Assembly: GCA_045046875.1 (NCBI GenBank)
Contig: JASFYY010000063.1
Location: 1 to 45,181 of the forward strand
Direction of reading: 5' to 3'
DNA length: 45,181 nt
Origin: Verrucomicrobiota bacterium
GTDB lineage: Bacteria > Verrucomicrobiota > Verrucomicrobiia > Verrucomicrobiales > DEV007
Each line of letters opens with the position of its first letter. The first letter of the stretch is position 1. Below the pieces are notes generated by a model. It searched no databases, had not been told where the DNA came from, and saw only the letters and a list, made by a program, of their open reading frames with translations. Positions 8,089 through 33,855 of the stretch are shown in pieces. The translations under genes and the position numbers were made by a program.

Positions 8089-11000
8089 TCAATGACTGGC
8101 GGTTTCCACTTTTGGCGGGGAATTGGCGTCGCTTTCAGCAATTTTACGTTGCATATCCGCCATTCGACCGCTCACAGCAGCGATTTCCTTGCCTTTGTTG
8201 GTCAGGCTGCTGCGCAGCTTGTTTTCAAGGGACGCGGCTTTCGCCAATTTTTCCTCGAGTTCTGCAATTCTGGATTCTTTTTCGTTTTTATCCTCAAAAG
8301 CTTTACTGAGTTCAGCTTGGGCGTCGCCACCTTCGGCTCCGGCCATCATCGAGGCTGTTTCCAGCTGTTTGTGCAGGGCATCGATCTCGGCTTGTTTTTC
8401 AGAGGCCAAGTGTTGAGCTTCATCTTTCATGCTTTTGGCGGATTTCTCCGACTGGATGACTCTGATTTTCATGGTTTCGAGTCGAGCGAAAGCCGCGGAT
8501 TTTTCAGCGGCGATTGCTTTTAGGCGATCGCCGGAATCACCGCTTCCACTGAGCTTTTCCTTGAGCTCCTCCTCTTTGCCTGCCGCTTCGTTTAGGGCTG
8601 CCGCGCGTTCTTCCAAGGTCTTTTGCTGGTCGCGAAGTTTCTGCTCAGCTTCGGCTTGTTGAAGCTGTTGTTTTTTTAATGAATCCTGCAGTTCTGAAAT
8701 TTTAGACTCTTTTTCAGAGGTAGCTTGATTCGCTTTGTTGATTTCGACTTCAGCTTTTTCCCGGGCTTCCTGATTGGCTCTTTCGATCTCTGCTTTGGCT
8801 TTTTCCTTGGCTTCTTGATTGGCTTTTTCGATTTCGACCTTGGCGTCTTGTGCGGCCTGTTCGAGTTTCTCCTGCATCGCCTCGACTTCAGCTTCCTTGC
8901 GAGCGACGGCATCGTCGGCTTTACTCTGTAACTCACTGACGGAGCTTTGTGATGCGCTGACTTGATCTTTCAGCTTTTGCATCTCTTCTTCGGATGCGGA
9001 TTTGTCGCCACTCAGTTCTTTAAGTTTGGCTTCGGCATCAGCCTGTTGCTGTTCTTGGCGGTTGATTTGCTCCTGTAGTTTCTCCTGCAGGGATTCGATC
9101 TCCGATTCTTTGGCCTCAGCGGCTTTTTGTGCACGGCGCACTTCGATTTTGGCCTCTTCACGTGCGGTTTGCGCTGCTTCTTCCAGCTCCAGGCGTAGGG
9201 CTTCTTTTTCGGCTTCTTTCTGTTTGACCGCTTCGTTCGCTTTTTGCTGAAGCTCGGCTACAGAACCTTGGGATGAAGCCACTTCATCTTTGAGTTTTTG
9301 GATTTCCTCTTCGGAGGCGGATTGGTCTCCACTGAGGGCAAGCAGGCGTTCTTCGGCTTCTGCCTGTTGTTGCTCTTGCCGTTTGAGTTGCTCGTCGAGT
9401 TTTTCCTGCAGGGTGGCCATTTCCGACTCTTTGGCAGCAGCGGCTTGTTGTGCCCGTGCTACTTCCGCTTTGGCTTCTTCGCGGGCATCCTGTGCAGCGG
9501 CTTCCAATTTGGCCCGCAGTTTATCCATTTCGGCTTCTTTACGAGCAACGGCGTCATCGGCCTTTTGCTGCAGCTCGTCGACCGAGCTCTGCGAGGAGGC
9601 AACCTCGTCACGTAATTTCTGAATTTCTTCTTCGGAAGCGGATTTATCTCCACTGAGCATTTTTAAACGCTGCTCGGCTTCAGCCTGCTGTTGTTCTTGC
9701 CGTTTGAGCTGCTCGTCGAGTTTCTCTTGTAAAGTGGCCATTTCGGCTTCTTTGGCGGCGGCGGCTTTTTGTGCCCGCTCCACTTCTGCCTTGGCTTCAT
9801 CCCGTGTGGCTTGAGCAGCGGCTTCAAGCTTGCTGCGGAGGGAATCCATCTCAGCTTCTTTCTCTGCAACGGTATCGTGCGCACTTTGTTGTAGGTCGGA
9901 AACTTTGCCTTGGGAAGCGCGGATTTCGTCGCGCAATTTATCCAACTGATCTTCGGATGCCGACTTGTCGCCACTGAGCTCTTGCAGTTGTTTTTCTGCG
10001 TCGGCTTGCTCTTGTTCTTGCTTGCCGATTTGAGCCTCTAGCTTAGCTCTCAGGTTGGCAATTTCAGATTCTTTTTGGTCAGTGGCCTTACGTGCTTTGT
10101 CGAGTTCTTCCTTGGCTTCCGAGCGTACGGTATCGACTGCCTCTTCAAGCTTGTCACGAAGGGCTTTCACTTCGTTTTCCTTTTCGGCTACCCGGTCGTC
10201 AGCACTTTTTTGCAATTTGCTGACTTTTCCCTGTGATGAGCGGATTTCATCGCGGAGTTTTTCCAGTTGTTCGCCATCATTGGACTTATCGCTGATAAGT
10301 GTGCGCAGTTTGTTTTCCGCATTACTTTGTTGTTGAGCTTGTTTGTCGATTTGCCCTTGCAGTTCATCCCGTAAGGCTATAATTTCAGCCTCTTTTTTCT
10401 CGGTATCCTGCTGGGCTTTGTCGGCTTTTTCCCGGGCCGCTTTGCTTACTTTTTCTAATTCTGCGCGAGCAGCCGCTTTGGCTTCGGCACGCGCTTTGGC
10501 TACTTTTTCCAGCGCCTCTTGTTCGGCTTCTTCTTCGAGTTTGTTGAGAGATTCTTTGGAGGCCGCAATTTCACCGCGCATTTTTTCGACTTCATCTTCG
10601 GAAGAAGATTTGTCACCACTCAATTCCTTGATGCGGGTGGCTGCTTCAGCTTGTTTCAGCTGCTGTTTGCGTAATTTGGCCTGCAGCTCTGCAATTTCGG
10701 CATCTTTTTCAGTGGTTTCCGGCGCTTTGTTAAGCCCGCTGGAAAGGTTACCTTGAACGCGGGATTTGCGGATCGTAGGTTTTTTGATGATTGAGCTTTT
10801 AGGCTCAGATGATTTTGCTTTGGGGCTCTCGGATTTTTCTTTGTTTTTAGCGGCCGCTGCCAGTTGGATTTTTTGCGATCCTGTGCGGTTTTTCAGTGGT
10901 GTGACATTAACCGTGGATGCTTTTTTAGAGGGCTCCGCTTCGAGGAAGCGCCCGCGCAAAACGCCAAATTTGATCTCATCTCCGGCTTTGATGATACATC

Positions 11001-11223
11001 GCTGGATTCTCTCGCCATTGATGAAAGTTCCATTAAAGGAGTCTTTGTCGATGATTTCGTAGTTCCCACTGTCAGAGCAGTTGATTTCCGCGTGAAAAGC
11101 AGACATAAAGCGATTCTTGATCCGAACGTCGCAATCGTGATGTCTGCCGATAGTGGTTTTGTCGTCGGAAATCAGAAAGGTTTCGAGATCCGCTTCGCCT
11201 GTATCAATCGTTAATTTCAGCAT
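8089..11223 (-). CDS. FHA-domain protein with long repetitive coiled coil
   Basis: N-terminal FHA motifs IGR, SAFHA, SFNGT; K/S/P-rich linker; ~850 aa of E/K/A/Q-rich coiled coil. Confidence 0.88.
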   Translation of the reverse strand: MLKLTIDTGEADLETFLISDDKTTIGRHHDCDVRIKNRFMSAFHAEINCSDSGNYEIIDKDSFNGTFINGERIQRCIIKAGDEIKFGVLRGRFLEAEPSKKASTVNVTPLKNRTGSQKIQLAAAAKNKEKSESPKAKSSEPKSSIIKKPTIRKSRVQGNLSSGLNKAPETTEKDAEIAELQAKLRKQQLKQAEAATRIKELSGDKSSSEDEVEKMRGEIAASKESLNKLEEEAEQEALEKVAKARAEAKAAARAELEKVSKAAREKADKAQQDTEKKEAEIIALRDELQGQIDKQAQQQSNAENKLRTLISDKSNDGEQLEKLRDEIRSSQGKVSKLQKSADDRVAEKENEVKALRDKLEEAVDTVRSEAKEELDKARKATDQKESEIANLRAKLEAQIGKQEQEQADAEKQLQELSGDKSASEDQLDKLRDEIRASQGKVSDLQQSAHDTVAEKEAEMDSLRSKLEAAAQATRDEAKAEVERAQKAAAAKEAEMATLQEKLDEQLKRQEQQQAEAEQRLKMLSGDKSASEEEIQKLRDEVASSQSSVDELQQKADDAVARKEAEMDKLRAKLEAAAQDAREEAKAEVARAQQAAAAKESEMATLQEKLDEQLKRQEQQQAEAEERLLALSGDQSASEEEIQKLKDEVASSQGSVAELQQKANEAVKQKEAEKEALRLELEEAAQTAREEAKIEVRRAQKAAEAKESEIESLQEKLQEQINRQEQQQADAEAKLKELSGDKSASEEEMQKLKDQVSASQSSVSELQSKADDAVARKEAEVEAMQEKLEQAAQDAKVEIEKANQEAKEKAKAEIERANQEAREKAEVEINKANQATSEKESKISELQDSLKKQQLQQAEAEQKLRDQQKTLEERAAALNEAAGKEEELKEKLSGSGDSGDRLKAIAAEKSAAFARLETMKIRVIQSEKSAKSMKDEAQHLASEKQAEIDALHKQLETASMMAGAEGGDAQAELSKAFEDKNEKESRIAELEEKLAKAASLENKLRSSLTNKGKEIAAVSGRMADMQRKIAESDANSPPKVETASH
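8800..10680 (-). repeat. Intragenic tandem repeat, ~321 nt (107 aa) unit, about six copies; boundaries approximate
   Basis: L(S/I)(G/S)D(K/Q)S anchor recurs near 9009, 9330, 9651, 9972, 10293 and 10617 (spacing 321,321,321,321,324). Confidence 0.88.
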
Positions 11224-21932: not shown

Positions 21933-23015
21933 ATGGCAGATGATCACAGCGTGCAAAAGGAGGGAGTGGGAGAAGCTGAGATGCTGAATCTGAACCGGGT
22001 GCTGTTGGTGGATGATAATCCGACCAACTTGCAGGTTTTGTATCAGGCTTTGGAGGAGCAAGGGTATGAATTGCTGATTGCGCAGAGCGGCGAGGAGGCA
22101 TTGGAGATTGCAGGCGCTGCGAAACCTGCGCTCATTTTGCTCGATATCAATATGCCGGGCATGGATGGTTTTGAAACCTGTGAGCGACTGAAGGCTGATG
22201 AGGCGACCAAGGAGATTGTGATTATTTTTCTGTCGGCAAGGGATCAGGTGCAGGACAAGGTGAAGGGGCTGCAACTGGGGGCGGTGGATTATGTCAGCAA
22301 GCCGTTTCAATTCGAAGAAGTGGTGGCGCGGGTAAATACCCAGCTCGAGCTGAGGCGGGCGAAGGAGGAGCTACGCAGGATGCATCAGCAAGCGGATTCG
22401 TTGTTGTTGAACATCTTGCCGCGTTCGATTGCCGAACGTTTGAAGGAAAGTGAGCGTAACATTGTGGATAGTTTCCCCGAGGCGACGATTTTGTTTTGTG
22501 ATCTGGTGGGATTCACACCTATGGCTTCGCAGACCACACCGAGGGAGTTGGTGCAATTTTTGAACGGTATTTTTTCTGAACTGGATCAACTGGCGGGCAA
22601 ATACGGATTGGAGAAGATCAAAACGATAGGTGATGCCTACATGGCGGCGGGCGGGGTGCCCGACCCTCGTCCCGATCATGCGACAGCAGTGGCGGATTTT
22701 GCGCTGGAGTTGCTGCAGCGTTTACCCTCTTTGTCTGAACGCATGGATCTGCCGGTGAAGTTGCGGATAGGCATTCATAGTGGGCCGGTGGTGGCTGGGG
22801 TGATTGGTGAGAAGAAGTTTGCTTATGATCTATGGGGTGACACGGTGAACACAGCGAGTCGGATGGAATCAAGTGGTGGAGAGAATCGTATACATATCAG
22901 CCGGGTGACTCATGATTTGTTGGCGGATGTTTATGAATTTGAGCAACGCGGTAATGTGACGATTAAAGGCAAGGGGGAAATGGAGACTTATTATTTGCTG
23001 AATAAAAAAGCGTGA
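21933..23015 (+). CDS. Response regulator receiver fused to class III adenylate cyclase
   Basis: REC (LLVDD, LLDINMP, KPF); cyclase FCDLVGFT, EKIKTIGDAYM, YDLWGDTVNTASRMES, IKGKG; start could also be 21915 or 21981. Confidence 0.93.
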   Translation: MADDHSVQKEGVGEAEMLNLNRVLLVDDNPTNLQVLYQALEEQGYELLIAQSGEEALEIAGAAKPALILLDINMPGMDGFETCERLKADEATKEIVIIFLSARDQVQDKVKGLQLGAVDYVSKPFQFEEVVARVNTQLELRRAKEELRRMHQQADSLLLNILPRSIAERLKESERNIVDSFPEATILFCDLVGFTPMASQTTPRELVQFLNGIFSELDQLAGKYGLEKIKTIGDAYMAAGGVPDPRPDHATAVADFALELLQRLPSLSERMDLPVKLRIGIHSGPVVAGVIGEKKFAYDLWGDTVNTASRMESSGGENRIHISRVTHDLLADVYEFEQRGNVTIKGKGEMETYYLLNKKA

Positions 23016-23031
23016 GAGACGGGAACTGAAA

Positions 23032-25611
23032 ATGACACAATCTATTCGCAATAAAATGATGCTGTTCATCGCGGTTCCCACCGTCGCGATTTATATCGGG
23101 GTGATGGTGTGGATCATGGTATTTTCGAAAGGACAGGCTCATCGTTTTCATCATCAGGAAATGAAAGACCGGGCGGAGACGGCAGCCTCGCGTTTTGATG
23201 ATTATATTTCCAAGGTTGCGAGAGTGAGCGAGATCACTGCGGGTTTTGTCTCCTGGGTGCCGGAACTTTCAGATGAGCAGGTGTTTGGCATCGTCGAAGA
23301 TCTGGTATCGGAGAATAGCCGGATTTATGGGGCAGGTTTGGCTTTTGAACCGGGGACTTTGAAGCCTGAGGGCACCTTATTCAGTCCTTACGCCTACAGA
23401 GTGGATGGTAAGGCGGTGAGCAAGAATATCAGCAAGGAGGTGTATGACTGGTATGGGGATGAAAAATGGCAGTGGTGGCATTTGCCTAAGAAGTTAGGCA
23501 AAGGGGTGTGGACCGAGCCTTATTTTGACAAGGGCGCAGGAGATGTGCTGATGATAACTTATTCAACCCCTTTTTATAAGGAGGGTAAATTTTACGGAGT
23601 GGCCACTACCGATATAGATCTGGAAACGCTGTATGAAAATGTAGGGCATAAAATTGCCGGCAAGCGTGAGTTTTATATTTTGTCCAAGGACGGGAGGTTT
23701 GTGTTTTCACCGCACACGGAGGAGATCATGAATAAGAGTGCTTTTGAGGTGCTGGAGAGTGAAGGTCGTTCAGATCTTGCTGACGAACTTCAACAAATGC
23801 TGAAAGGGGAAAGTGGAATAGTGACGGTAGGGGCTTTGTTTGAGAGTGAGCGTCACATGTATGCTTATGCTCCGATCCCTTCGACGGATTGGACCTTTGT
23901 TGCCTACATGCCTGAGTCCGAGGCTTTGTCAGGTTTTCGCCAGAATATGGTGTATGTGGTGAGCGCTTTTGTGGCCGCTCTGCTGTTGATTCTGACGACG
24001 ATATGGATTGTCTCAAAACGTCTCACCCAACCGATTGAAAAACTTAGGGATACGGTGTTGAAGGTGGCGGACGGAGATTTGGATGCTCAAGTGGACGGTA
24101 ATTTTGCCAATGATGAGATTGGCGATTTGGCGAAAAATTTCAATCGCATGACCACCGAACTGAAGGGGCAGGTGTTGCGCCTCGCTCGTGAGGAAGCGGG
24201 GCGTGAAGAAGCCGAGGAGGAGAGTCGGGCGAACAGTGATTTTTTATCTCACATGAGTCATGAATTGCGTACCCCGCTGAATGGGATTCTTGGTTACGCG
24301 CAGATTTTGCAAAGAGATAAAGACCTGCCAACGAGACAACGTGGCAGTGTGGATTCGATTATCAATTGTGGGGATCACTTGTTGTCATTGATCAATGACG
24401 TGTTGGATTTATCAAAAAGCAAAGCGGGTCATCTTGAATTGGATTTGGCCCCTTGTGATTTGAAAAAGCTCACCACAGAGGTGGGCGATATTGTGGGGCA
24501 GCGCGCTCGCAACAAGCGGGTAGATTTTGCCGTGGAGGTTTCAGAGGGAGTTCCACGCACCATTATTTCCGATGCGGCTAAGATTCGTCAGATACTGGTG
24601 AATTTGTTGGGTAATGCTGTGAAGTTCACTGCAAGAGGTAGTGTGAAGTTGCGTGTGTTTAAATCAACAGAGGAGTTGCTGCAATTCGATATTACGGATA
24701 CCGGGGTGGGGATGAGCAAAAAAGAGATGGGACAGATTTTTGATCCTTTCAAACAGGTGAAGGCGGGCAAGGCAGCGGGTGGTACAGGATTGGGGTTGGC
24801 AATCACTGAGCGATTGGTAGCCTTGTTGGGGGGGGAGGTCAGCGTGGTCAGCGAGGTGGGCGAGGGTAGCACTTTTAGTGTGGTGATCCCTTTGCAGCGA
24901 GCGCCCGAGGAAGAGTTGGCTCGACTGGAAGCAGAGAGTGACAGGAATCGTCAGGTATCGAGATTGGCACCTGGGCAAAAGGCGACCATTTTGGTTGCGG
25001 ATGATCGTTTTGAGAATCGGGAGATTTTGAATCAATTATTGCTCAGTGCCGGATTTGATGTGTTGATGGCCGATGATGGAGATGTGGCGGTGGAAGAGGC
25101 TAAAAAAGGCGGAGTGGATCTCATTTTGATGGATGTTTATATGCCCAGGATGAGCGGTATGCGGGCGGTGCAGATTATTCGTCAGGATGAGGATTTGAAG
25201 GGGATCAAGATCGTGGCGGTGACGGCCAGTGTTTCGCTTGAGTTTCGCCAGAAAGCCCAGGATGCCGGATTTGATGATTTCATGGGCAAGCCTTTTTGGG
25301 TCGGTGAACTGATGCGCATTTTACAAAGGCATCTGGATGTGGAGTTCGAATGTGATGAAAACGAGGAGGGGGATTGTGACTCCATCGAGGAGGGTGGGGA
25401 TTTAGCTGAGCTGGAGTTGAGCGGAGTATCCAGATCCTTGGTGGAGAAATTAAATGCGGCGATGAAGATTCGTAATTTGACGGCGATTAAAGAACTTGCG
25501 AAAGAGTTGGAGGCGGACGGGGATCATTCCGCTTTGGCACAAGAAATTTTGAAATTATCCGCAGCTTTTGATTTTAAAGAATTAGGAAATTTGGTCGAAA
25601 AAATAAAGTGA
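23032..25611 (+). CDS. Hybrid sensor histidine kinase (dCache-HAMP-HisKA-HATPase-REC)
   Basis: Two TMs flanking dCache (WTEPYFD), HAMP (DEIGDLAKNFNRM), MSHELRTPLN, NLLGNAVKFT, DTGVG, GTGLGL, REC LMDVYMP. Confidence 0.94.
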   Translation: MTQSIRNKMMLFIAVPTVAIYIGVMVWIMVFSKGQAHRFHHQEMKDRAETAASRFDDYISKVARVSEITAGFVSWVPELSDEQVFGIVEDLVSENSRIYGAGLAFEPGTLKPEGTLFSPYAYRVDGKAVSKNISKEVYDWYGDEKWQWWHLPKKLGKGVWTEPYFDKGAGDVLMITYSTPFYKEGKFYGVATTDIDLETLYENVGHKIAGKREFYILSKDGRFVFSPHTEEIMNKSAFEVLESEGRSDLADELQQMLKGESGIVTVGALFESERHMYAYAPIPSTDWTFVAYMPESEALSGFRQNMVYVVSAFVAALLLILTTIWIVSKRLTQPIEKLRDTVLKVADGDLDAQVDGNFANDEIGDLAKNFNRMTTELKGQVLRLAREEAGREEAEEESRANSDFLSHMSHELRTPLNGILGYAQILQRDKDLPTRQRGSVDSIINCGDHLLSLINDVLDLSKSKAGHLELDLAPCDLKKLTTEVGDIVGQRARNKRVDFAVEVSEGVPRTIISDAAKIRQILVNLLGNAVKFTARGSVKLRVFKSTEELLQFDITDTGVGMSKKEMGQIFDPFKQVKAGKAAGGTGLGLAITERLVALLGGEVSVVSEVGEGSTFSVVIPLQRAPEEELARLEAESDRNRQVSRLAPGQKATILVADDRFENREILNQLLLSAGFDVLMADDGDVAVEEAKKGGVDLILMDVYMPRMSGMRAVQIIRQDEDLKGIKIVAVTASVSLEFRQKAQDAGFDDFMGKPFWVGELMRILQRHLDVEFECDENEEGDCDSIEEGGDLAELELSGVSRSLVEKLNAAMKIRNLTAIKELAKELEADGDHSALAQEILKLSAAFDFKELGNLVEKIK

Positions 25612-25612
25612 T

Positions 25613-26554
25613 ATGAGCAGTGTTTCTGAAAATACCGTTGAGAGGAAAAGTCGCGTATTGTTGGTGGACGATAATCTAACCAATTTGCAGGTGCTGTTTC
25701 AGGCTTTGGAACAGGAGGGTTACGAATTGTTGGTAGCTCAATCGGGTGAAGAGGCGCTGGATATAGCCAGGGAGGCTTGTCCTGACCTGATCCTATTGGA
25801 TATCAATATGCCGGGTATCGATGGCTATCAGACCTGCGTCCAGTTGAAAGAGGATGAGAAAACCCGGGATAGTGTGATTGTTTTCCTCTCGGCTAGAGGA
25901 GATACGGCGGACAAGGTGAGGGGGTTGGAAATAGGGGCGGTGGATTATATCGACAAACCTTTCCAGTTTGAAGAGGTGCTGGCGCGGGTGCGCAAACACC
26001 TTGAAATTCATGCGCGTGAACGACAGTTGGAGCAGGCCAATGAGGAACTTGAGGCTCGTTTGGGGGAAGGTTTTCGGGATTTAAATGATGCAAGTGTGGC
26101 GACGGTGATTAACGAGGGGGAGAGTGACCAATTGGAGTTCAAGTCTACTTTGCGCTGGAATTTACATACTAACAAATCAGATAAGCGTATGGAGAACGCT
26201 TGTCTGAAAACCATCGCAGCTTATTTGAATTCGGGTGGTGGCACATTGATGGTAGGGGTGGATGACGAGGGCGTGGCGTTGGGATTGGAGACGGATAAAT
26301 TTTCCAATGAGGACAAATTGTTACTGCATCTGAATACCCTGATCATGAATCATCTGGGTGGTGAGTTTGCGCAATTGATCAAAGCGACGATTCATACGGT
26401 GGATGAGCAGCGGGTGCTGGTGGTGCAATGTTTGCACTCGGTAGAGCCAGTATTTTTCCGCCGTGACAATGACGAATATTTTTATGTGCGCACGGGACCC
26501 GCCACGGCGGCTTTGTCGCCGAGTGAAGTGATCGCTTATTTGAAGGGACGGTGA
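25613..26554 (+). CDS. Response regulator receiver fused to Schlafen/AlbA_2 domain
   Basis: REC (LLVDD, LLDINMP, KPF), coiled-coil linker, then GESDQLEFKS...KTIAAYLNSGGGTLMVGVDDEG...FYVRTG. Confidence 0.88.
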   Translation: MSSVSENTVERKSRVLLVDDNLTNLQVLFQALEQEGYELLVAQSGEEALDIAREACPDLILLDINMPGIDGYQTCVQLKEDEKTRDSVIVFLSARGDTADKVRGLEIGAVDYIDKPFQFEEVLARVRKHLEIHARERQLEQANEELEARLGEGFRDLNDASVATVINEGESDQLEFKSTLRWNLHTNKSDKRMENACLKTIAAYLNSGGGTLMVGVDDEGVALGLETDKFSNEDKLLLHLNTLIMNHLGGEFAQLIKATIHTVDEQRVLVVQCLHSVEPVFFRRDNDEYFYVRTGPATAALSPSEVIAYLKGR

Positions 26555-29153: not shown

Positions 29154-30449
29154 TTATGAGGGTTCTTCCGGGTTGAATATTTGTTGCCAGTTAGTATTTC
29201 CGGCAGACAGGGCTTCTTTGGCCTTGTCGAGTTCTGTATTGGTATTGGCAAAACGATGGGAGATCACCCCGAGAAACTGCCATAACAGCTTTACTGCGAG
29301 TTGGTGTTCCTGACGAAGGATTTCGAAAAACTCTGCGCGGCGGATAACCATGAGTTCAGTAGATCCTTTGCTGATGACGGAAGCGGAACGGGGTTCTCCA
29401 CGAACCAGGGCCATTTCTCCAAAATGATCTCCGACGCTCAGTTGGGCGATCTCATTATTGCCCTTACGCACTGATGCTTGTCCGTCGAGGATGACAAAAA
29501 GGCTGTCACCTTCTTCGCCCTCATTAATGATGTTTTCTTCGTCCCGGAAATTAACCACGGCCGTGATTTGCAGGACGTGTAATAACTCGCGTTCATCCAG
29601 TTGTTTGAAGAGTGCCATTTTGGAGAGCAGGTCGTGTTTCAATTGCAATGTGCGGGCACGCTCTTCATCCGGATGGTCACCTTCGCTGACCGATATTGCA
29701 ATGGCAGTGATATTGTCCCCGCCACCAGCATCATTGGCTGCATCGATCATCGTTTGCGCGGCACAATCAATATCGCTGATCGCCAGAATTTCCCCAAGCA
29801 TCTCAGGCTCCTCCTCAAAATAATGGGAAAGTCCGTCCGAGCAGAGCAGGAATCGGTCACTATCCAACAAATCGACAATCAGGGTTTCCGGTTTGGCGTG
29901 TTCAAAGGTTCCGATAGCCCGGGTGATCGAGTTGCCGAGTCCAAGTTGTTCGGCATGCTCTTGTGCCAGTTGCCCACTGCTGACCAACTCGTTGTAGACC
30001 GTATGATCCGTGGTGAGCTGTTCGAGTGAATGGTTGCGTAGGATGTAGGCACGGCTATCTCCAACGTTGAGGATGAATGCTTTGGCACCAACAATCAGGA
30101 TGGCGACCAAAGTGGTGCCCATGCCGCTGCATCCTGGGTTTTTGAGGGATTCCGCATGGACTTCGCTGGACGCCCGGTTGGCAGCGAAGGACATCAAGTT
30201 GACTAAGTCCAGTTTGGTTGTGTTTTCGTTTTTATCGAGGTAGCGGCTAAGCAAGTCTTGTTCTTTCCAAATTTCATTGTGAAAAACTTGCACGGCGATT
30301 TTACTCGCAACTTCACCAGCGGCATGCCCGCCCATGCCATCACAAACCACAAACAAATCCAGTCTTGGGTCAGCGAGAAAATTATCTTCGTTTTCCGGGC
30401 GCAGACGCCCGATATCAGTGAGGCCGCAAAATTTTATTTCGATTGCCAT
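29154..30449 (-). CDS. PP2C/Stp1-family Ser/Thr phosphatase with C-terminal cyclic-nucleotide-binding domain
   Basis: NEDN, VCDGMGG, GTT, VGDSR, CSDGL, GDNIT; cNMP cassette FGEMALVRGEPRSASV. Confidence 0.92.
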   Translation of the reverse strand: MAIEIKFCGLTDIGRLRPENEDNFLADPRLDLFVVCDGMGGHAAGEVASKIAVQVFHNEIWKEQDLLSRYLDKNENTTKLDLVNLMSFAANRASSEVHAESLKNPGCSGMGTTLVAILIVGAKAFILNVGDSRAYILRNHSLEQLTTDHTVYNELVSSGQLAQEHAEQLGLGNSITRAIGTFEHAKPETLIVDLLDSDRFLLCSDGLSHYFEEEPEMLGEILAISDIDCAAQTMIDAANDAGGGDNITAIAISVSEGDHPDEERARTLQLKHDLLSKMALFKQLDERELLHVLQITAVVNFRDEENIINEGEEGDSLFVILDGQASVRKGNNEIAQLSVGDHFGEMALVRGEPRSASVISKGSTELMVIRRAEFFEILRQEHQLAVKLLWQFLGVISHRFANTNTELDKAKEALSAGNTNWQQIFNPEEPS

Positions 30450-32727: not shown

Positions 32728-33855
32728 ATGAGGAAAATACGGGAGTTTTTGTTGGGGCCGGAGGGGCAAACGAACTATTACCATGTGGTGAGCCGGACGG
32801 CGGGGAGGGATATTTTGTTTGAGGATGATGAGAAGGAAACTTTTCGGATTTTGATGCTTAAACAGTTGAAGTTCAGTGGACTGCGGGCACTGGCATGGTG
32901 TTTTATGGGCAATCATTTTCATTTGCTGTTGGAGGTGCCGGACAGGGAGTTGGCGACAGAGGGGTGGAAGGATGAGGATTATATTAAGCGTTTGGAGGTG
33001 TTTAAGTATGAGTGGTCGAGCAAGTTGGTATTGGATGAGGTAGAGATGTTTAGGGAGAACGGTGCGGATGAAAAGGTGAATGAGGTTGCAGAATCGGTGA
33101 AGGCGCGGCTGTTTGATCTATCGATGTTTATGAAGGAGCTGAAGCTGAAGATGACACTGGCTTACAACCGGAAACACGGTCGGGTGGGGACTTTGTGGGA
33201 GGGACCGTTTAAGAGTGTGTTGCTGCAACCTCCTTCGCCATTCTCCTTCGCTAAAGCTACGGCGAACAAGAGGCTTCGGCGGTCAGGGGAGACGGATGGT
33301 GAGAGTGGAGAGAGTAGTGATGCGTTGCGTATGGTGGCGGCTTATATCGATCTGAATCCGATTCGGGCGGGGTTGGCGCGGGAGCCGGAGGGTTATCGCT
33401 GGTGTTCGTATGCGGCGGCGGTGGCCGGGGTTCGCGACGCGCGACAGGGTTTGTGTTATGCTGTGATGGGGCGCAGTCGGGTGGCGTGGAAAAAGGTGGC
33501 GCAGGAATATCGTTGTTTGTTGTATGCAAAAGGGAAAACGGTGAAGGCTGATCAAACGGTGGATGGTTACAACAAGGGCAGGGCAGGTTTTAGTCGGGCG
33601 GAGATCAAGGAGGTGTTGGAATCGGGTGGGCGTTTGCCGGTGGCGGAGGCTTTGCGGTGTCGGGTGAGGTATTTTACCGATGGAGCAGTGTTGGGAAGTC
33701 AACGTTATGTGGATGACTTTTTTGAGAGTAAGAGGGAGAGTTTTGGTGCACGGCGTAAGGATGGTGGGCGGCGAATGCGCGGGGCGCAGTGGGGGGATTT
33801 ACGGGTGCTTCGGGATTTGAAAGAGGATGTGGTGACGGTCAAACGGCCTTGTTAG
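32728..33855 (+). mobile_element. REP-associated tyrosine transposase (HUH/Y1, IS200-like), apparently intact
   Basis: YYHVVSR, CFMGNHFHLL (HUH), GTLWEGPFKS, AAYIDLNPIRAG, YRWCSY. Confidence 0.9.
33229..33288 (+). repeat. Two nested ~30-nt palindromic repeat units inserted in-frame in the transposase
   Basis: Outer cctccttcgcca|gaggcttcggcggtcagg is interrupted by related inner unit ttctccttcgctaaagctacggcgaacaa. Confidence 0.72.

Follow-up and report, generated by a model that had tools for sequence, protein, structure and literature searches.

The locus raises the question of whether one sensor kinase controls two different outputs, an adenylate cyclase and a Schlafen-type (AlbA_2) ribonuclease, through two closely related receivers, and whether such a circuit serves growth and stress control or defence. 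It lies in a window, meaning the whole stretch of DNA that was analysed, of 45,181 nucleotides from a Verrucomicrobiota genome. The first-pass annotation had read here three tightly packed genes in the order receiver-cyclase, dCache hybrid kinase and receiver-Schlafen, with gaps of 16 nt and 1 nt, and the open reading frames and Pfam agree with this layout (Table 1). Pfam assigns REC (23-134) and Guanylate_cyc (180-356, 213 bits) to the cyclase protein, dCache/PDC, HisKA, HATPase_c and REC (653-764) to the kinase, and REC (15-127) and SLFN_AlbA_2 (170-299) to the Schlafen protein. Promoter and terminator scans of both cassette ends gave 0 sites each and are uninformative.

Table 1. Features of the three-gene cassette, in window coordinates.
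Feature	Position	Strand	Residues and basis
Response regulator-adenylate cyclase gene	21933-23015	+	360 aa from 21933; alternative starts 21915, 21981
Receiver 1	21999-22334	+	D27, D28, phospho-D71, S101, K123; Pfam and residue check
Helical linker before the catalytic domain	22392-22442	+	weak HNOBA match, residues 136-170; taken here to be a cyclase-transducer-like element
Class III cyclase domain	22470-23000	+	D190, D234 metal; K230, D299 ATP-specifying; N306, R310 transition state
Hybrid sensor histidine kinase gene	23032-25611	+	859 aa
Kinase architecture, TM-dCache-TM-HAMP-HisKA-HATPase-REC-helical tail	23032-25611	+	HAMP from Pfam matches in orthologues
Periplasmic dCache sensor domain, between two hydrophobic segments	23155-23904	+	Pfam, residue check
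Kinase core, HisKA and HATPase	24232-24897	+	H410, N528; Pfam, residue check
Kinase's own receiver	24988-25323	+	D701; Pfam, residue check
Conserved four-helix C-terminal kinase tail	25432-25605	+	no conserved His; Hpt-likeness is a lead only
Response regulator-Schlafen (AlbA_2) gene	25613-26554	+	313 aa
Receiver 2	25655-25993	+	D19, D20, phospho-D63, S93, K115; long helix continues to residue 150
Schlafen nuclease domain	26120-26509	+	E170, E175, K177 (E-x4-E-x-K), D218

The arrangement is not due to chance, because it is kept in 13/134 genomes of the family (6/30 genera, this one included), each of which has both receivers. The family search (E <= 1e-44, with no more than 17 candidates scored in each genome) gave exactly two matches in every positive genome, and these are the two receivers. 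Gene order is the same in all 12 other positive genomes, nine of which carry the trio on a single contig while three are split at contig ends within the kinase; with this genome counted, 10 of the 13 cassettes lie on one contig. The whole trio is also present in one metagenome locus, L050. The flanking genes vary by genus, which identifies the three genes themselves as the conserved unit, and the cassette is virtually certain to be real; the neighbourhood that the first-pass annotation had treated as one operon is thus conserved. It was not found in 300 further genomes sampled from the class, in each of which at most seven candidates were scored. A scan of genome contigs with a single protein gave only 5 loci. 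Kinases of other genera carry one to three PAS domains, which are absent in this genus. Two members are incomplete: in a close relative (G005) codon 207 of the Schlafen gene is a TAG while the receiver is intact, and the cyclase gene of G017 runs into the PAS region of the kinase, both the cyclase and the Cache domain being absent. Both may be real losses or assembly errors, and they suggest that either output is possibly dispensable.

The two receivers of the regulators align without gaps at 82/113 identical residues, which reproduces the earlier hand count, and are 69% identical over 121 residues. Identity drops to 48% for the nearest other receiver of the genome and, as had also been claimed, is far lower, at 28-31%, for the one that the kinase itself carries. 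Both keep the acidic pair, the phospho-Asp, the Ser and the Lys, and the five residues of receiver 1 are invariant in 47/47 closest relatives. The first-pass annotation explained this likeness by receiver duplication with a swap of outputs, and of that explanation membership of one receiver subfamily is well supported and strict sisterhood weakly so. In a 209-row FastTree the two receiver sets are sisters with a support of 0.55, nested among other receiver-Schlafen proteins; in a thinned 52-row IQ-TREE both fall in a 25-row clade (97/92) that excludes the genome's other receivers placed in the tree and whose inner order is not settled. Both trees are built solely from sequences that the searches returned, and in a search of 50% representatives with the receiver alone the top ranks went to multi-receiver proteins, so that this search sampled the subfamily unevenly. 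The duplication is old: over 15 receiver pairs (the window, G024 and 13 pairs matched solely by contigs of equal length) identity is 67.6% within loci and 67.5% between loci, which rules out a recent duplication and leaves no sign of gene conversion. Receiver orthologues are 74% alike on the Schlafen side and 86% alike on the cyclase side.

The likeness of the two receivers extends to the surface through which a kinase would be recognised. Five positions of helix 1 that are expected to touch the kinase read TNVQA in both window receivers, and N, V and A are invariant across all 30 receivers of the 15 pairs, while the set occurs in 0/19 other receivers compared from this genome. Four of the five positions follow the rewired RR468 to which a PDB title refers, and they presumably correspond to the same positions in the receivers studied here. 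The kinase's own receiver has ENIQL, which is nearer to the receiver-cyclase of another contig (C51, ENIEL) than to the twins. Divergence between the twins is greatest in the beta4-alpha4 and beta5-alpha5 segments (59-62% identity versus 69-75% in the first three). Fold searches with both models returned receiver domains alone, and the receiver with its following helix superposes best on PleD of Caulobacter (Z 23.5, rmsd 1.8, 139 residues), which is the closest solved receiver by sequence and by structure, the post-receiver helix included. PleD has a diguanylate cyclase as its output and a second, pseudo-receiver domain.

The kinase has H410 and its ATP-binding boxes intact. Its dCache domain matches 3LIC (E 8.7e-27) better than 3LIB (E 6.7e-15), and the later positions of the amine-binding dCache_1AM motif, as this is given in the available text of 10.1101/2023.04.06.535858, are matched, while the first aromatic residue and the upstream insertion are not. 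A four-step His-Asp-His-Asp phosphorelay was considered for this cassette and is not supported, since no Pfam Hpt domain is found in the window's kinase and no His is conserved in its tail across 8 aligned sequences; the first-pass annotation had left this point out of account. The tail forms four helices in the predicted model, its Atlas Hpt matches fall under the bar of the tool, and its resemblance to the tails of other hybrid kinases is taken as a lead; the kinase fold search was filled by its receiver. Three of the five cassette genomes tested (91-96% complete) have 0 Hpt matches, and in the remaining two, as in this genome, the sole Hpt match lies inside an ORF of more than 1100 aa. VirA is a precedent for a hybrid kinase that works without an Hpt. 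For a kinase without Hpt, direct transfer from H410 to the receivers is the simplest route, and it is likely, judged from the joint occurrence of the two receivers and their shared helix-1 residues, that both are fed by this kinase. Against this, a hybrid kinase commonly phosphorylates its own receiver before others.

The receiver-Schlafen protein could instead tune the cyclase, as a phosphate sink or by forming a heterodimer with it, or other kinases of the genome could feed the two regulators. Receivers that are 69% alike and are followed by similar helices could cross-dimerise, the relative with a stop in its Schlafen domain has kept the receiver, and a second hybrid kinase of the genome, which has an Hpt, adjoins another receiver-cyclase. 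The twins differ most, however, at the usual site of dimer contacts, purifying selection on the Schlafen domain equals that on its receiver, and three cassette genomes are without any Hpt match, and this alternative is quite improbable. The second pair itself (G000:C51:3894-8818, minus strand) consists of a receiver-cyclase, whose receiver is 48% like the window's, and a hybrid kinase with two receivers and the genome's sole Hpt match.

All six catalytic and specificity residues of the cyclase are found in one chain. The first-pass annotation had named the Lys of EKIKT and the Asp of YDLWG as ATP-specifying, and these are confirmed as K230 and D299. D190, K230, D234, D299 and R310 are kept in 47/47 closest relatives and N306 in 46/47. 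The domain was aligned to mammalian AC5/AC9 and its nearest solved structures are mammalian-type enzymes, and by these residues the protein should be a homodimeric adenylate cyclase, which is very probably active. The genome has 7 cyclase-domain and 10 cNMP-binding matches, so cAMP has receptors in this organism. A Pycsar cyclase (PycC) was considered and rejected, as the PADLOC match has 62 bits against 213 bits for Guanylate_cyc and the specificity residues K230 and D299 are of the ATP type; in place of the cNMP-gated TIR or membrane effector of a Pycsar locus, the genes that adjoin the cyclase are the kinase and a DUF308 gene. A PP2C phosphatase with a C-terminal cNMP-binding domain, which is a candidate cAMP effector, is encoded 2.6 kb away in the window (29154-30449, minus strand), and a cNMP-FHA gene adjoins the cassette in G445 and G489.

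The SLFN_AlbA_2 domain scores 62 bits against a Pfam cut-off of 25.3 and its profile matches mammalian SLFN structures. The E-x4-E-x-K motif, which is the catalytic motif in the available texts of PMC13056530 and PMC13462974, is intact; E170 and K177 are found in 120/120 relatives and the E175 position is E or D in 120/120. As the motif is kept in all of these, a purely binding role is unlikely. Values of dN/dS against three relatives are 0.018/0.59, 0.099/1.76 and 0.082/1.44 (about 0.03-0.06), by which the domain is under purifying selection, as strong as that on its receiver. The domain is likely to be an active RNase, and tRNA is slightly favoured as its substrate.

A reading with the same wiring takes the Schlafen domain as a narrow regulatory RNase or RNA-binding domain, or as one that phosphorylation switches off, so that no translation brake would result. 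It is consistent with a stretch behind the catalytic Lys that is invariant and peculiar to the subfamily, with a single-gene Schlafen that stands without an antitoxin and is stable among housekeeping genes, and with fusions of the subfamily to membrane Cache sensors and cNMP-binding domains, which fit routine signalling. The bacterial Schlafens that are characterised in the available texts of PMC13056530 and PMC13462974 nevertheless cut tRNA, and this reading is unlikely.

The relatives of the domain show how widely it is used. Among the best 80 of 565 metagenome Schlafen matches, 41 are receiver fusions, and the others include fusions to Cache, cNMP-binding (4), GmrSD (3), HsdR (2) and BrxL (1) domains. 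In a 142-row Schlafen tree the receiver and Cache fusions form one 113-row clade with an SH-aLRT of 93, which is below the starred support level of the tool, and the cNMP fusions group outside it with the defence fusions (GmrSD, HsdR, BrxL). The receiver type changes inside the Schlafen clade, which indicates that the domain was recoupled more than once.

Several of these relatives are of interest in their own right. The cNMP-Schlafen fusions L064:4111-4836 (which falls under the Pfam cut-off), L073:2171-3076, L088:2-979 and L104:6021-6932 are candidate cyclic-nucleotide-gated RNases, and Cache-Schlafen fusions of 490-550 aa (L033, L034, L038, L040), which correspond to pSlfn12 of the published catalogue, are one-component counterparts of the cassette. 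C-terminally extended receiver-Schlafen proteins occur at L058:4681-6012, L062:2126-3448, L063:2289-3659, L066:410-1801 and L069:2351-3919, and the four examined end in hydrophobic, probably membrane-spanning segments. At six loci (L074, L082, L092, L094, L095, L123) an orphan receiver-Schlafen gene has a DnaJ gene downstream, five times with DUF1232, and at four of them a YbjQ-like gene upstream. Schlafen proteins of 435-449 aa whose N-terminus carries no annotation are encoded beside a DUF2225 gene (L036:238-2826, L037:236-2784). The genome itself has two other, distantly related SLFN_AlbA_2 domains, at G000:C25:22935-23291 and G000:C19:69607-69981.

A defence circuit was among the roles that the first-pass annotation had proposed, and the genomic context argues against it. 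Beyond matches to shared domains, none of which falls on the Schlafen domain, no defence gene is found in 20 window proteins; no restriction, CRISPR or similar family is found in 32 proteins that flank the cassette loci; and among 81 neighbours of 31 of the 41 receiver-Schlafen loci, defence families are absent save one PIN and one AAA-DUF4143 gene. The GC content agrees with that of the genome, and neither this nor the neighbouring genes support a defence island or a recent mobile insertion. With defence context absent, control of growth or stress is favoured over defence, and a non-defence role is, on this genomic evidence, fairly likely. Elsewhere in the window, a 1044-aa ORF with an N-terminal FHA domain, a long coiled-coil-like region and strong AT skew is found at 8089-11223 (minus strand), and a gene like that of a REP-associated tyrosine transposase, with weak matches, at 32728-33855 (plus strand).

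An anti-phage or danger circuit would have the dCache domain sense a cue of lysis or damage, the Schlafen domain abort infection by cutting tRNA, and cAMP act as an alarm. Schlafen domains 45-55% identical to that of the cassette sit in the GmrSD, HsdR and BrxL fusions, the catalogue gives pSlfn18, a group of receiver-Schlafen proteins, a defence score of 0.5, the cyclase has its weak PycC match, and the distribution of the cassette over genomes and genera is patchy. Against this, the three contexts above hold no defence genes apart from the exceptions given, the GC content is not foreign, no defence gene adjoins four of the six pSlfn18 entries that were checked, and the Guanylate_cyc score is far above that of PycC, with residues of the ATP type; such a circuit is quite improbable. 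All bacterial Schlafens tested in the available texts of PMC13056530 and PMC13462974 act in immunity, and 30.4% of Schlafens lie outside defence islands with a role that the catalogue (PMC13056530, in its available text) leaves open.

The reading preferred here is that a single sensor governs both cAMP synthesis and an RNase for signal-gated growth or stress control, and as a whole it has about an even chance of being right. A periplasmic small molecule would bind the dCache domain and set the balance of kinase and phosphatase activities of the hybrid kinase. With no Hpt in the cassette, the phosphoryl group would pass directly from H410 to both related receivers, and the kinase's own receiver would be a sink or modulator, not a relay. 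Phosphorylation would then rearrange both regulators by way of their post-receiver helices, in a PleD-like manner. The first output, which has the residues for it, would make cAMP; the second, from its conserved residues and the selection on it, would be a metal-dependent Schlafen RNase and likeliest a tRNase. The net effect, as the context suggests, would be a change in cAMP that is gated by the signal and coupled to a translation brake, in growth or stress control as opposed to phage defence.

The same design is found with other partners. L055 has a receiver-Schlafen gene, a hybrid kinase and a receiver-HD-GYP gene, and its receivers are 69% alike and 48-51% like the window's, which suggests the same design on a different receiver lineage. 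In P0243 and P0244, which the receiver-only search returned, a single chain holds receiver-Schlafen together with receiver-HD-GYP or receiver-PP2C (their receivers are 56% and 62% alike), and L053, L060 and L103 are weaker cases of the paired design (receivers 58-62% alike). Among the best 80 of the 565 matches, a second receiver-enzyme gene is present at 5/41 receiver-Schlafen loci and a receiver-cyclase at 1/41 (L050), counted on metagenome contigs many of which are short, with several loci that have no adjacent kinase; pairing like that of the cassette is not general among receiver-Schlafen loci. A broader and more tentative proposal is that a Schlafen clade, fused to receivers and membrane Cache sensors, was domesticated as a signalling output and repeatedly paired, through matching receivers and under a single hybrid kinase, with a second-messenger or phosphatase enzyme, the cassette being a kinase-controlled, non-immune translation brake that responds to an extracellular chemical cue by cutting tRNA in time with a cAMP pulse. 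If true, a ribonuclease joins the outputs of two-component systems and Schlafens gain a role outside defence. The cassette allows a direct test of such a role, as the trigger can be mimicked by BeF3 or acetyl phosphate; the cyclase would itself report the activation of its receiver, and the receiver pair offers a natural experiment on the specificity of one kinase for two outputs.

The first-pass annotation knew of no described system with this wiring, which holds for the wiring and not for the receiver-Schlafen fusion, since the latter is already catalogued as pSlfn18, the "CheY.pSlfn" group of 14 members (Perez Taboada et al. 2026, PMC13056530). In the available text of this source, pSlfn18 has the same Response_reg and SLFN_AlbA_2 architecture as the cassette protein and the motif E-x4-(E/D)-x-K, and it includes one CheY.pSlfn.CheY.HD_PDEase protein, which is the architecture of P0243. 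The group is catalogued there outside the four tested architectures, with no operon or kinase partner described, and the terms "response regulator", "receiver", "two-component" and "cyclase" occur 0 times in the main text. The titles and abstract starts of the literature searched, which leaves most subscription papers outside, describe no kinase that feeds a cyclase and a Schlafen. New are the conserved trio and the recurrence of its design with HD-GYP or PP2C as the partner enzyme, in one case built on another receiver lineage.

Three known systems, each compared through the available text of its source, share parts of the design. Cash (CRISPR-associated Schlafen), a Csx15 fusion (PMC13462974), has, like the cassette protein, a single Schlafen domain with a catalytic triad that is gated by a fused signal-receiving domain, and its activation changes the oligomeric state; it is triggered by cA4 in type III CRISPR through a C-terminal sensor, whereas the cassette has an N-terminal phospho-receiver and no defence genes were seen with it. 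Receiver-controlled cyclases are already known from CyaC of Spirulina and Anabaena (PMC3009899), a class III adenylate cyclase that a histidine kinase switches on by phosphorylating the receiver; CyaC is one multidomain protein of type IIIb, while the cassette has separate kinase and cyclase genes, a cyclase of the mammalian type and an added nuclease output. In VirA/VirG of Agrobacterium (PMC4705274), the hybrid kinase's own receiver controls the activation of a separate response regulator, but the single output there is DNA-binding and, unlike those of the cassette, is neither a cyclase nor a nuclease.
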